Of a stretch of DNA of 64,000 bases, positions 4,325 through 63,915 are shown piece by piece; positions within the stretch are counted from its first letter, which is position 1, and the number at the start of each line of letters is the position of its first letter. The DNA lies in contig CM022668.1 of assembly GCA_012295275.1 (NCBI GenBank), positions 10,664,001 through 10,728,000 of the forward strand, written 5' to 3'. The translations under genes were made by a program, and so were the position numbers. The stretch is from Chrysomallon squamiferum. Lineage: Eukaryota > Animalia > Mollusca. The notes beneath the pieces are model-generated. The model saw nothing but the letters and a program-made list of their open reading frames with translations, was not told the DNA's origin and searched no databases.

Positions 4325-4617
4325 TTAAACTCTTGAACTTATTTTCTCGTAGATGTTTTGTTTAGCAGTGGCTGGATCAAGTGTTTCGTATTCATTCATA
4401 AGAATTTCTTGTCCAGCGTTCACATAGCCACCATCACTTTGCTGCTGGGTTGTAACTCGTGACGAAGTCTGATCGTTATGGTATGAACTGTAACATGCCC
4501 AGGCTCTTCTCTAGTTTCTCCTTCTACGATTTCATAGTGAGTCCGCCATCTTGGTTTGTCGTGTTGATGTTTTCTTTGGCTCTAGAATCAGATGTCGTTC
4601 TGTGACGTCTAACATAT
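4325..4617 (-). CDS. Cytoplasmic tail exon of A1 with YEIV, YVNA and ITAM-like YETL-x9-YEKI motifs (frameshifted in this assembly)
   Basis: Acceptor cag at 4618-4620 (minus). Colinear with the A2 tail exon 25408-25650. Has +2 nt at ~4541 and a net +11 nt at ~4481-4494 relative to A2. Stop TAA at 4325-4327. Confidence 0.8.
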
Positions 4618-7600
4618 CTGAAGAAAAGAGATTTGGAAGAATTGAAATGTTTTCGGTGTATTGAAGAAACGCTTTTTTTTTTTATTGTTATTTTTTTTTT
4701 TTTTATATGAGTGAAAAGATTTTTCAAACCATATTTTTCACGGGAAAGTTTTTATAAAATTAGGCTTTTTACAACGTATTAAATAAACTTTATGAATTAC
4801 AACTTTATGAGTTGCCAAAAGGAATTGAAGTGATGATCTTTGTGTAATTACTTAGATAAATATTACATAGTTGTTTTAATAGTTTTATTATATAGTTTAT
4901 ATATTTTTACCTTTGTTAATTATTTAACAGAAATGAAAAATACAAATATACCATCGAATTCAAATAGTGCATCTAAAATATTACAAAATTAAATCTTAAA
5001 AATATGAGAAAAATACTCGAATGTACTTTAGAGAAACAAACCCAGGAGAATGATTTCTAAATATGGTGTGAAATAAATATTGTTTTTTAATTAAACATTG
5101 TAAAAGTTATAGTTAATTTCAGTACCTATGATTACTAATTTTTATTTTAATCATTTGACAAATGAGGTTTCTGAGAAAAGTATGTAATAATACAAGTTAG
5201 TTTGTCACACCAACATTTAATTATCTCTGTAAATTTAATATTCATGTCTTTTTGTTTCTTTGTATCTATTTTAACTATATGCTGTGTTTTAAATGACCAA
5301 TATTTGATACAAAGATGACATATTTCTACAGAATAAAGACAAACAGTTAACAAACAAGCAAAAACAAAAAATTAAAGTGACAGACAACACATTTTCATTT
5401 TCGTATTCTTACTTTTGGTTTTATTCTGAAACTAAAATCCCATTGGTAAAATATATATACTGCTATTTCTACAATTTAAACCATCAGATATTACTTTTGC
5501 AACATCCTTGTTTACTGTTTGAACTGAAATTTGTTTGAAAATTTACTATTATTTCTACTAATTAAAACAGTTCTGAAAACAGCAATAACAAAAAATTAAA
5601 ATGGACGTTCAACAAAATTTTAATTTTCATTTCTTAGTCTAAGAAATATATTGTTTGAAGATAGCATTCTTCCACTATCTTAAACTGAGATGGATCTAAC
5701 AGTTTTACTTACTAATTGTACAAGCGTCTCCTTCCCAACCAGTTTGACACTGACCGCTGCACGACCCTGTCACGTGATCACATGGAGCATGCTCATCTTT
5801 ACACTTCCTGTCTTTACAGGAAAATCTGCAGTTTGATCCATAGCTGCCTGAACATTCTGTTTTATGTTTAAAAAATTAATTTATTAATAAAATTAATTCA
5901 AGAAAAATAAATGAAATGAAGAAAATGAAATATTAAATACAACATGAATGAATAACAAAAAAAAAAAAAAAAATGTACAATAAACAAAATTGAGGTATTT
6001 CATGGTTAAACACATTAGATTTAGAGAAATATTCATTTTTCTATTTCATTTACATCATTCAAACACGAACACAGAGAAACATACAAACGTACATATACTG
6101 ACAGTACATCGTTAAAAATATTATCGTAATCCTGAAATTTAAAACTTTCTATTTTTCTATCGTTCGATGTGTCGACTGCAAACATTACAATCTGATTGTC
6201 AACACGGCAGTTAAAACAATCATTATTTGTAATAGATATTTACTTTCTGTACACGTGTTTCCTTTCCATCCGTCCTCGCACTCTCCGTCACATGACCCTG
6301 TCACGTGATCACATGGAACTGACGTGTCTTTACAATGTCTTTCAGAGCAAGAAAATATGCAGTCAGGTCCGTATTTACCTTCACAACCTGTTTGATATAA
6401 AGTGAAGGGGTTATGCTCTTTACAGACACCTTGTTTAAAATACACGTACACACACACATACACAGAGATATAAAGTCAAATATGTTAGAGACAATCTCTA
6501 TACACGATAGCAATATAAATAGCAGTATATCTAGAATTCAATATCTTTAAACTGAAATGAACAGAAAAGTAAAATAAATTGTCTCAAGAATAGTTTATAA
6601 TATCTTCACACACATTTTAATACATCTAAATCATATCCTTATTTAGATAAATATCTTAAGAAAATATCAACGTTCCTAAATCTGTTACTTTTTAAGAAAA
6701 TACATTAGAATGTAAATAAAATATTTGTAAAGAAATAAAAAAGTAATTTGAATCACACCAGTACAGTCTGTTCCAGTCCACGGTTCCTCACATCCGCCTC
6801 CACATGAACCAGTCACGTGATCACAGCTTGCTGTTTTATTCATACAGTGTCTTCTTGCACAGTTAAATTTACAACCGTTTCCATAGAAACCAGAAGCACA
6901 TGCTGAGAATAAATATTAAAAAGGTAGAAAGTATTAAAGTATGTTTAAACATATATTATAATTTTTGTTAATAGTATTGGGATTTGATGAAACTTTAATA
7001 AAAAAAAGATATGTAAGGAGTATGTGTGTATGTGTGCGTATTGGTGTTTTTGTAGGTGTAAACAGAGAGACATATAGATAGAGAGATAGACAGACAAATA
7101 GATGTAAGAGACCAGTTATTTAGATACATTTCTCGTATTTCAAACAATCAAATGATATTTTGGATATAAATCATTTACTTACGTTCCAAACAGTTCACAT
7201 TTCTCCATCCTGGTTTACAGCCGTTTTCACATTTCCCAGTTTTAACATCACAAACTGAACTGTCTCCACTACAGTGTCTTTGACTGCAGCTCAACTTACA
7301 TCCAGGACCAAAAGTACCAGACTCACATTCTGTAAATACATTCAAAGTTGTTTATTTTAATTGATCGGGGATCAGTTTGTGTTTCCTGAATTAGTGTTAG
7401 AATGAACACGAATTTTAAGAATTTCAATTTTTCTTAAATTTACTAAAATAGTTTTTAACCCTGTAGACTATACACTTTTTATTTTCTTTCTGAAAAAATT
7501 AAATAGTAAAAACGTTTTTAACATGAATATTTTTTAATTAATAACAATATATATATTCGGATTTCATTATGAATATATTACTTGAATATGTTTTAATTAG

Positions 7601-60900: not shown

Positions 60901-63900
60901 TGTAAACAACAGTCCTAAGTATCTGTATCACAACAAATAGTATATCGTAAACAAGTGAATATCTATATAACAATATAAGTAAATGATATATGGTAGAAAA
61001 AAGGTATATATATCAGTTTCACAGTTAAATTGTGTATCATAAACAACAGTTCACAAGATTTAAGAGATAAAAAAATTGTTCTAAACATTAGTCCGATAGC
61101 ACATTGGAAACAAAAATTCAATATTTCGATATAAAAAACAAGAGTTTAGTATATCTGTACAACAAGTAAATAAAATAATGTATCTTGTTTGACGTATACA
61201 ATTCAGTAATATAAAACACAGTCACGTTATTTTTTGTAAACTTAATAAATAATAAATAGTATTGTAACTGAAATTATTTACAAAATGTAAACTTTATTTA
61301 ATAATACTTTCAGCTCCAAACAAGATAACTGTGTTTGATTTCTGGAGGATGATTTGGGAACAGGACTGTAGACAGATACTAATGCTGACAAACCTCATGG
61401 AAGCAGGAAAGGTAACAGAAAAAAGTGATATAAGCAGTTAATTCCTTTTCTTCGAGTACAATGTTAACTTGAATAATATGAATTTAAAAATATAAAATTA
61501 ATTATAGTATATTTAAGATTAAATTGTAAACACACAGTCTGACTGTCAGGACATATATATGTTGCCTGTCTGTCTTGCTATCTGTATGTGTGTCGGTCTA
61601 ACTATACATCGATCTATGCATTATCCATCTACTTACCTACCTACCTTACTACAAAATATACACACACACACAGCCACAAAATAACACACACACACACACA
61701 CACACTGAAATTTGCATATATGTATATGAATATGTATATTTATTTATTTATTTACAAGACGCTGTCATCTTTCACTTTTGTATTCATTACAACGTTAATA
61801 CTTACTATGTATACTGAGAATGAAATCGTGCATAAAAGAGGACACTAAGTTGTGTGTATGATACTTGTATTTGTTTTCTTTAACACAGCACAAGTGTGAG
61901 CCCTACTGGAATGACGAGAAAACCAAAAATGTGGGATACTTTGACATTGTCGTAGAGGAAATATCTGAAAGAGCGGAATATACAGTTAGAAGAATTAAAG
62001 TCACTCAAACAAAGGTAATTGGTGCAATCAAAAAGACAGACACTTTTAAATATATAGGTACACAGAGAGAGAGAGAGAGAGAGAGAGAGAGAGAGAGAGA
62101 GAGAGAGAGAGAGAGAGAGAGAGAGAGAGAGAGAGAGAGAGAGAGAGAGAGAGAGAGAGAGAGAGAGATTAACCCATAGACAAATTGATATAGAAGTGTA
62201 TTTCCATATTTTTACATGAACAGAAACAGACATTACAGTCAATATGTATAAACATCAACAATCAGTGTTAACGACAGAAGTGTATAATTATATTATAAAA
62301 TAAAGCTGAGTATTAGATTAATAGTGATTAATGTGTTTCAGTCGGGGAAGGTGACTCAAAAGAAATTCGATCACTTTCACTTCACGTCATGGCCTGATCA
62401 CGGCGTGCCCAACGTGCTTGACTTTCTCGACTTCATGTGGAAGACAAGAAAAGCGGCGACATCGAAATCTGGTCCCGTACTAGTTCATTGCAGGTGTCAC
62501 GTCAAACATTGCTGATTATATTCGTAATTTACCTAAAGTATTACACATGTTTTGTCTTAATGCACAAGTCACTTCTCTTTCAGTGTCTGATAACGTTAAA
62601 GTAATATGTAGATATGTGTGTGGCTGTGTGTGTGTGTGAGTGTCTGTCTGTGTGTGTGTGTGTGTGTGTGTGTGTGTCAGACAAATAAATCCGTATATTA
62701 TTAATCTGAATGTCTTTTAGTATTTCAGTCAAAACATTACCGATAATTCGGTTGATTTCTCATTAAACTGAATTTCTAACACTTCTGGGATTTTAGAATG
62801 AAGCTAAACTTTTTTGAAATGAAAATAAAAAGTAAAATAGTTCTTGAATGAGGCTAAACCTATATAGAATGAAAATAAGAATTTGTTTTTTATATACAAT
62901 GAAGCCAAACACTTTTAGAATGAAAGTGAAAAGTGAAACATTTACAGAAGTACGGCTAAACATTAGAATGATTGTAAAGCTTCTAGAAAATAAGACTAGT
63001 GAAGTTTCGAAGATAAAGAAAAAAAAGCTAGAAGATAAAGTAAAATATAGTTAAATTTAATTTAATGGATAAACTAGGATAAAGTATTATGGTATGAATC
63101 ATTTTCGTGTCAGTTCCATTTTTCTTTCATTACTCTAGTCTATTATATTAATTTGTTTTCCAGCGCTGGAATAGGAAGGACTGGGACATACATTGTTCTT
63201 CACATTCTCATAGACGAGATGAATGCAACGGGACGAGTGGACATTCTAAAAAACATCACCATTCTGAGAGAACAACGAAAAGGCATGATTCAGACAAAGG
63301 TAAAACATTCACCACGTATCTCTGCCAGTCAGTCAGTCGATCTGTCTTTCTGTCATTCATTATGTCTTCCTTCCTATCTGTGTTTCTGACTGTCTGCTTA
63401 CCTATGTGTCTGGCTGTCCGTCCGTCCGTCTGTCCCTCTGTCTGTCTGTCTGTCTGTGTGAATCTATACATACGTATGTATCGATATCTATAATGTATAT
63501 CTAAATCTGTCTGTATCTATTATATATCTGTCTGTGTGACTATCTATCTCTATTTCTCTCTTTGTGTATATCCAGCTATCTATCTATAGTTGTTTCATTT
63601 TGTGTACCTTGTTAAGTCATTATTTTGTACTGTTTGTCTCTGAGTCTGATATTTAATGCGTCTGTATCTACATTTCCCCACTTGACTGACTGTGTTATCT
63701 CATTACTAACTGAGAATTTATCTTTATGCATTGAAGTTATACAAGCGAGTGTAACATTTGTATTGCAGGATCAGTACGAGTTTGTGTTCAACACTTTATT
63801 AGAAATAATAAATTACGGACAGACAAGTATGGACACGAACCATTATCTTCAACAGTATCCAACAAAGGGAGATAACCTGGTAATGGGGAAGATGACGATA

Positions 63901-63915
63901 AATCAGCTGGCTCAG
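57946..63915 (+). CDS. Class B copy B3: TM, juxtamembrane region and PTP D1 of a second receptor-type tyrosine phosphatase (partial at both ends)
   Basis: Exons: TM 57946-58060 (AEMLQVSQTQVPSDVIIGVVVGAVVVVIVAVIAAVFWR), 58322-58392, 58950-59386, 59645-59732, 60196-60272, 60461-60497, 61314-61411, 61889-62014, 62342-62493, 63164-63299, 63769-63915. All open; sizes from 58950 onward are identical to B2. WPD and [10 protein letters not shown] intact. Confidence 0.92.

Follow-up and report, generated by a model that had tools for sequence, protein, structure and literature searches.

What kind of receptor system arises when one ectodomain is joined to two different cytoplasmic parts, in genes that face one another? 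This is the question raised by a 64,000-nucleotide stretch of the genome of Chrysomallon squamiferum (contig CM022668.1; hereafter the window, meaning the whole of this stretch), in which two classes of gene share a lectin–EGF ectodomain. Class A genes join it to a transmembrane (TM) segment and a tyrosine-bearing tail with the pattern of an ITAM (the tyrosine-based activation motif of immunoreceptors), whilst class B genes join it to tandem protein tyrosine phosphatase (PTP) domains. A preliminary description of this DNA read the two as the activating and inhibitory members of a paired-receptor system. That reading is partly supported overall, and is strengthened by repeated sharing of ectodomains across the classes in other molluscs. 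The evolutionary pairing of A and B is well supported by sequence comparison; that the two classes work as an activating/inhibitory pair is, in our view, about evenly balanced. What the sequences show is the gene anatomy, TM-to-tail splicing in class A, conservation of the ITAM and cross-class ectodomain sharing in several molluscs.

Gene anatomy of the two receptor classes

The window is animal DNA, AT-rich and rich in microsatellites. Three gaps of 200 N divide it into four contigs, so that gene order across the gaps rests on scaffolding. Exon models were built from splice sites and translations, with one further EGF exon added via tblastn, and give the following order: the fragment A0; then A1, on the minus strand and duplicated at its 5' end, opposite the plus-strand B1; then the minus-strand A2 opposite the plus-strand B2; and last B3 (plus). 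Gaps follow A0, B1 and B2, and coordinates are given in Table 1. There are two head-to-head A/B units and the remnant of a third. The divergent A2/B2 pair of the preliminary description is confirmed, with start codons 1,395 bp apart. A second unit, absent from that description, is formed by A1dup and B1, whose ATGs lie 1,425 bp apart; A2–B2 and A1–B1 each lie inside one gap-free contig. The intergenic regions of the two units align in three blocks that are 72–78% alike, which makes the units either paralogous or deeply diverged haplotypes, and the choice between these has no effect on the pairing.

The ectodomain is colinear in A and B, as first proposed: a signal peptide (SP), an EGF domain, an F-type-lectin-like domain encoded by two exons, and an array of EGF exons, seven or eight of which follow the lectin domain. 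Over 475 aa, a comparison that leaves out the EGF exon later found by tblastn, identity is 90.7% for A1–B2, 88.8% for A1–A2 and 85.3% for A2–B2. The lectin domain matches PF22633 at 28.1 bits (cut-off 27.8) over half its length, solved structures match it too, and its fold is F5/8-C-like, homologous to FBP32 and fucolectin-related protein. The canonical fucose-binding motif is H-x26-R-x-D-x4-R/K. In all four copies the His position is Leu (FCILT, for SCTHT in FBP32) and in A1 and B2 the Asp is Gly; with these residues lost, the ligand is probably not canonical fucose. Among named relatives, those nearest to the lectin exon are six Gigantopelta aegis proteins (61–76% identity), from a vent snail. 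The ratio of nonsynonymous to synonymous substitution (dN/dS) stays under 1 in the EGF exons and in lectin exon 1; between A and B it exceeds 1 in lectin exon 2, there on two or three synonymous differences, too few to use.

The class A tail motifs YDIV/YEIV, YVNA and YERL/YETL are all found in the exon models. The full ITAM reported for A1, YETL-x9-YEKI, is there as a motif, but a net +1 frameshift precedes it in the tail and puts it out of frame. The earlier caveat that neither A copy is intact holds, since in A1 the TM exon has decayed and the tail is frameshifted, and A2 has a 1-nt deletion and a gap. Together with its downstream intron, the A1 TM relic aligns to A2 with a score of 194, where the best of 300 shuffles reaches 136; the exon by itself scores 69 where shuffles reach 74, and is thus not above chance. 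An intact A1 receptor made by skipping the TM exon was ruled out by a stop at aa 619. In A2 the SP is shortened, the last EGF exon is absent from the ectodomain and one EGF cysteine is lost. The 1-nt deletion falls in the EGF exon after the lectin domain (31098–30971), which has 128 nt against 129 in the other four copies, and skipping this exon would preserve the reading frame.

Three RNA runs from one study (X1–X3) were compared with positions 25408–30140, the 3' part of A2. One X1 contig joins the TM exon (26516) to the tail (25650) at exactly the predicted sites, the comparison reaching as far as the first half of the ITAM. It differs from the A2 tail by 15 differences and a 3-nt deletion, and the 13 differences listed spare all three tyrosines, so the contig represents one more A copy, in frame. 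Four EGF exons are joined at predicted sites in another X1 contig, matching three A2 EGF junctions, and an X3 contig carries an in-frame, 12-nt form of an insertion that is 11 nt in A1. Two X2 contigs extend into introns, and DNA or unspliced RNA is thus present in the libraries. The spliced A transcript on which the preliminary description laid weight is therefore seen in part: TM is joined to tail in frame, but the ectodomain is not bridged to the TM.

For class B, the intact first (D1) and dead second (D2) phosphatase domains are borne out. D1 has the WPD loop, HCSAGxGRTG and the Q-loop, motifs from which it is predicted to be active, whilst D2 lacks the P-loop cysteine; with its tandem domains, D1 motifs and degenerate D2, class B is by motifs a receptor PTP (RPTP). 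Among solved structures, the best matches of one D1 exon are PTPRS, LAR and RPTP-alpha. B2 can be read as an open frame of 1,293–1,320 aa, the length being set by one splice choice in D2, whose second exon has four alternative splice choices, all frame-keeping. A 43-bp tandem repeat (53106–53286) reaches the start of this exon and appears to replace its splice acceptor. The juxtamembrane region of B2 has three YxN motifs and its C-terminus is GVYANM. KNRF in place of KNRY was considered as a mark of decay and rejected, as it occurs in 13 of 20 phosphatase relatives (see below) and is thus typical of the family. In B3 the D1 exons are 95–100% identical to those of B2 and the TM exon 78%. B1 was placed in class B by its SP exon (94.5% to B2), and its lectin exon 2 has two compensating frameshifts with stops in between. 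A 71-bp tandem array (17206–17701) lies between the two B1 SP exon copies, one of them frameshifted and the other intact.

The claim that SP, TM and cytoplasmic exons are unrelated between the classes stands for the TM and cytoplasmic exons, which differ by class, but the 5' ends have a 13-mer in common. It occurs seven times in the window, where 0.01 occurrences are expected, every time at the 5' end of an A or B gene, and it precedes all six A and B start codons, by 14 nt in B and by 28–32 nt in A. Its GGAA core we take to be ETS-like, and the 13-mer is a candidate shared promoter or 5' untranslated region element.

Table 1. Features of the receptor locus, in window coordinates
Feature	Position	Strand	Remarks
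A0, ectodomain fragment	1..2299	-	covers a piece of lectin exon 2 plus four EGF exons; bounded by N gap and window edge; A/B class not readable from fragment
A1, class A gene	4325..11948	-	SP 11948-11879, EGF 11684-11553, lectin 10859-10659 and 10259-10038, eight EGF exons 9450-5713, tail exon 4617-4325; broken
ITAM pattern YETL-x9-YEKI in A1	4340..4390	-	four residues before stop; GYVNA upstream; out of frame with A1 tail-exon start
Class A TM exon, decayed relic in A1	5330..5420 (approx.)	-	holds stops and indels
Class B 5' remnant facing A1 (third promoter unit)	14435..14598	+
A1dup, second class A SP exon and frameshifted first EGF exon	15329..15682	-
B1, class B 5' half	17107..25105	+	two SP exon copies (one frameshifted), EGF, lectin exon 2, two EGF exons; ended by N gap
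A2, class A gene	25408..33465	-	TM 26627-26516; in-frame tail 25650-25408, ended by N gap after YERL
Divergent intergenic region, candidate bidirectional promoter	33466..34859		1.4 kb; 13-mer at both ends (33498-33510 minus, 34833-34845 plus)
B2, class B receptor tyrosine phosphatase	34860..55346	+	ectodomain 35162-41826, TM 42796-42904, juxtamembrane 43173-43851, D1 44072-50826, dead D2 51809-55346
B3, second class B 3' half (TM, juxtamembrane, D1)	57946..63915	+	continues past window edge
13-mer sites	11977-11989, 14576-14588, 15715-15727, 17080-17092, 17718-17730, 33498-33510, 34833-34845

Most window copies are decaying members of a birth-and-death family, and the lesions in A1, A2 and B1 may be real decay or assembly errors. 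Two non-coding blocks, in the A1 upstream region (12585–14369) and the first B1 intron (19467–21045), are duplicates at 88–94% identity. Open reading frame fragments in a B2 intron (45675–46675) and after B2 (56217–56586) look transposon-like by eye, with a Cys-rich and a helix-turn-helix-like stretch, and gave no Pfam match at cut-off.

Ectodomain sharing and conserved tails in molluscs

The ectodomains of A and B in the window are 86–91% alike, and 55–70% alike to those of Gigantopelta. They cluster by lineage, not by class: on 11 rows, the approximately unbiased (AU) test rejects a clade of B ectodomains with p 1.9e-9 and one of A ectodomains with p 4e-5. A1, A2 and B2 form a mosaic at the level of exons (p 0.012 by permutation), eight of the 10 informative sites in lectin exon 1 cut across class and pair, and introns common to A and B2 align over 1.3–1.6 kb. 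On a mollusc tree of 35 rows, from which three PTP rows with short matches were dropped, the class label changes 10 times, at least seven of these changes being forced by well-supported (starred) branches, and is unclustered, with 94–110 of 500 shuffles as low. Six of the 10 starred two-leaf forks unite an ITAM type with a phosphatase type, and three mixed sister pairs span two Haliotis species. In Haliotis rufescens, XP_048255890 (ITAM) and XP_048255870 (PTP) are 75% identical over 397 aa, against 49% for two ITAM types. The AU, mosaic and tree tests fit gene conversion and repeated exon shuffling alike; repeated conversion is, we infer, the likely means by which the ectodomains are kept near-identical.

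Relatives were surveyed with the Gigantopelta protein P0003 as query, and the best 150 of 1,918 matches were examined. Within these, a TM was predicted in 58 and PTP motifs were found in 20, and the ITAM pattern, defined as Yxx[L/I]x6-12Yxx[L/I] (PMC13358205), in 11 of 36 short non-PTP tails, where shuffles averaged 0.29 and never exceeded 3. The 20 relatives that were named (10 of the 11 with an ITAM, 10 of the 20 with PTP motifs) are all molluscan, from Gigantopelta, Haliotis, Argopecten, Crassostrea and Potamilus, with no Biomphalaria protein among them. All three Gigantopelta A-type proteins from the lectin-exon search end in GYVN[AS]...YxxL/I-x9-YxxL/I, and for each tail the C-terminal x9 YxxL/I pair arose at most four times per 20,000 shuffles. 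Spacing of the tail tyrosines, which the preliminary description singled out as a point to check, is conserved: x9 in five of six Gigantopelta ITAM tails examined and x7–12 over 14 mollusc tails.

Both window tails have Gigantopelta homologues, the A tail in P0001 (tblastn E 1.5e-5) and the B juxtamembrane region in P0006 (E 4e-10), so both cytoplasmic types are older than the split from Gigantopelta. P0006 (XP_041374108.1) is annotated 'jagged-1-like'; its juxtamembrane region is of the class B kind, and its end matches a DDE transposase weakly. It is probably a truncated or mis-modelled phosphatase gene. P0141, another relative with the same ectodomain, has a kinase motif, and a third tail type may thus exist in the family. 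Homologue searches with the A tail exon and with the B juxtamembrane exon gave no match, a metagenome scan found no related locus, and an Atlas search with a Gigantopelta tail returned only scores under 0.9.

Proposed signalling roles of A and B

Paired receptors combine close linkage and highly similar ectodomains with an activating member that has an ITAM or an ITAM adaptor, an inhibitory member that has an immunoreceptor tyrosine-based inhibitory motif (ITIM), and ectodomains that evolve together across the classes. Here the ectodomains are 85–91% identical in amino acids with ATGs 1.4 kb apart, and their joint evolution across the classes is seen in the AU tests, the mosaic test and the mollusc tree. 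The ITAM is recognised by pattern and conservation; in A1 it lies out of frame, and in A2 a gap truncates it. The juxtamembrane and C-terminal tyrosines of B, read by eye, do not match the ITIM pattern I/V/L/SxYxxL/V, and B carries a PTP domain in its place. On the activating/inhibitory reading, the 1.4-kb region would serve A and B as a common promoter, from which both would be co-transcribed in immune cells. Once ligand had clustered the A receptor, its C-terminal YxxL-x9-YxxI would be phosphorylated by a Src-family kinase and then bound by a Syk/Shark tandem-SH2 kinase, which would lead to phagocytosis or killing. The matching ectodomain would bring B to similar ligands, where D1, by taking phosphate off the ITAM or off the kinase bound to it, would set a threshold. 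The proposed sign of the B signal is, unlike the evolutionary pairing, not well supported.

Several observations weigh against this reading. Both near-complete A copies in the window are broken, and no RNA contig among those listed bridges ectodomain to TM; the absence of the A2 EGF-to-TM junction among the joints listed is by itself no evidence either way. The closest ectodomain is not that of the head-to-head neighbour (A1–B2 91%, A2–B2 85%). Lectin exon 1 is the most diverged part of the ectodomain (82–92% in nucleotides, dS 0.20–0.40; 77% in amino acids between A2 and B2), so partners may bind different ligands. The protein library holds one member per 50% cluster, which hides close relatives of the same class and inflates the count of mixed pairs, and P0006 belongs to class B by juxtamembrane homology only, its model ending before any PTP domain. 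B itself ends in YANM, and a YxN-type C-terminus is found in nine of the 20 phosphatase relatives; presumably this end resembles that of RPTP-alpha around Tyr789, which we take to be linked to Src activation. The role of RPTP-alpha Tyr789 is discussed in PMC9333306. With the juxtamembrane YxN motifs, YANM would also fit an activating or adaptor role. In Biomphalaria, the LG5R gene models of subgroups 1B and 1C that were examined (94–108) all lie in tandem on one strand, whereas the window genes are head to head, which rules out head-to-head order as universal.

These tyrosines lend themselves to a cooperative pair, in which B would be a co-activator like CD45 or RPTP-alpha, dephosphorylating the C-terminal inhibitory tyrosine of a Src-family kinase and so priming phosphorylation of the A ITAM, with the common ectodomain taking both to one ligand. 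The GVYANM end of B2, its counterparts amongst the phosphatase relatives and the three juxtamembrane YxN motifs suit such a role, and the evolutionary evidence for pairing fits it equally well. We consider it a serious alternative, though an unlikely one: phosphatases with large ectodomains commonly dampen signalling when co-clustered with ITAM receptors, and a general Src activator would presumably need no lineage-matched, fast-changing lectin domain. Similarly unlikely, in our estimation, but just as serious, is a lack of any functional pairing, whereby the exchange of ectodomain exons between inverted and tandem neighbours simply follows from their layout and A, as a Draper-like phagocytic receptor, signals independently of B. 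The aligned introns common to A and B2, the many broken copies, a lectin exon 1 that is not homogenised, the lack of any significant dN/dS above 1 and the several tail types within Biomphalaria clusters (PMC13712769) are consistent with this. Against it, cross-class sharing is seen in at least three lineages (the window, Gigantopelta and Haliotis), in which both tails are distinct and conserved, and one 13-mer has been retained before A and B start codons whose 5' regions have otherwise diverged.

That the likeness of A and B is an assembly artefact, feigned by collapsed or chimeric contigs or by units that are two haplotypes, is very improbable. The N gaps, duplicated fragments and several frameshifts give it some purchase, and B1 and B3 are possibly halves of one gene; but A1 and B1, and likewise A2 and B2, share a gap-free contig, copies differ at 1–18% of exon sites and 20–30% of intron sites, the RNA contigs are further variants with identical junctions, and annotated proteins from other species show the pattern again.

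Known receptor systems

The closest known architectures are those of Biomphalaria, where both occur together in one cluster as subgroups 1B and 1C (PMC13712769), and where RPTPs with MEGF and galactose-binding domains (GBD) are found at SudRes1 (PMC12297450). Like the window genes, those of 1B and 1C are clustered and copy-variable, and encode an SP, MEGF, a galactose-binding/fucolectin domain, one TM and, in the cytosol, either a small domain or a pair of PTP domains; the likeness is one of architecture (PMC13712769). The terms ITAM and ITIM do not occur in the main text of PMC13712769, nor ITAM in the available text of PMC12297450, and pairing is not proposed in the available parts of either. 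A literature search for ITAM/RPTP pairing in molluscs, with subscription journals largely outside its reach, found no such paper. The preliminary description knew of no account of this arrangement; within the reach of that search this holds for the paired reading but not for the architectures, which have been published side by side.

More tentatively, and with somewhat less confidence than we attach to the pair in the window, we suggest a mollusc-wide system in which ITAM receptors and phosphatase-bearing receptors repeatedly exchange copies of each lectin specificity, giving ITIM-free activating/inhibitory pairs; Biomphalaria 1B and 1C would be included, and schistosome resistance would be set by the balance between the two. 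If so, paired activating/inhibitory recognition arose independently in molluscs, with an integral phosphatase instead of an ITIM, and large, poorly annotated 'MEGF10-like' and 'RPTP-like' expansions gain a signalling hypothesis. These would include the schistosome-resistance regions of Biomphalaria (PMC12297450, PMC13712769) and the MEGF expansion of the symbiotic vent snail Gigantopelta, in which fucolectins are expanded as well (PMC7895826).

The vertebrate paired receptors Siglec-5/14, Siglec-11/16 and PILR resemble the window genes in close linkage, in ectodomains kept near-identical by gene conversion, in differing intracellular parts and in frequent gene loss (PMC13358205). Theirs is an Ig fold, with the ITAM on DAP12 and an ITIM that recruits the phosphatase, whereas in the window a lectin–EGF fold is joined to an ITAM in the receptor's own tail or to a built-in phosphatase, and the opposed function is a proposed one. 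Invertebrate receptor genes inherited in pairs, with activating and inhibitory tyrosine motifs, are also known in Botryllus (fester/FcoR), but these have Ig/sushi domains, ITIM or hemITAM tails and, in the available text, no built-in phosphatase, and are thought to heterodimerise (PMC12065747).

Class B resembles RPTP-alpha/epsilon and the LAR-type receptor phosphatases in its intact-motif D1, dead D2 and C-terminal YxN tyrosine, and differs from them in its lectin–EGF ectodomain and in KNRF for KNRY. The window genes thus bring together known protein architectures and a known design principle, in a combination that we have not found described. A further system to compare is Drosophila Draper, which to our knowledge has no F-type lectin domain. 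Draper is likewise an EGF-repeat receptor with an ITAM form (Draper-I; Src42A, Shark) and a phosphatase-linked inhibitory form (Draper-II), but these are splice forms of one gene, with Corkscrew recruited via an ITIM, where the window has separate genes and an integral phosphatase (PMC4503800). Draper-I and Draper-II are thus a precedent, in that a single gene for an EGF receptor there gives one tail with an ITAM and an opposed one that recruits a phosphatase.

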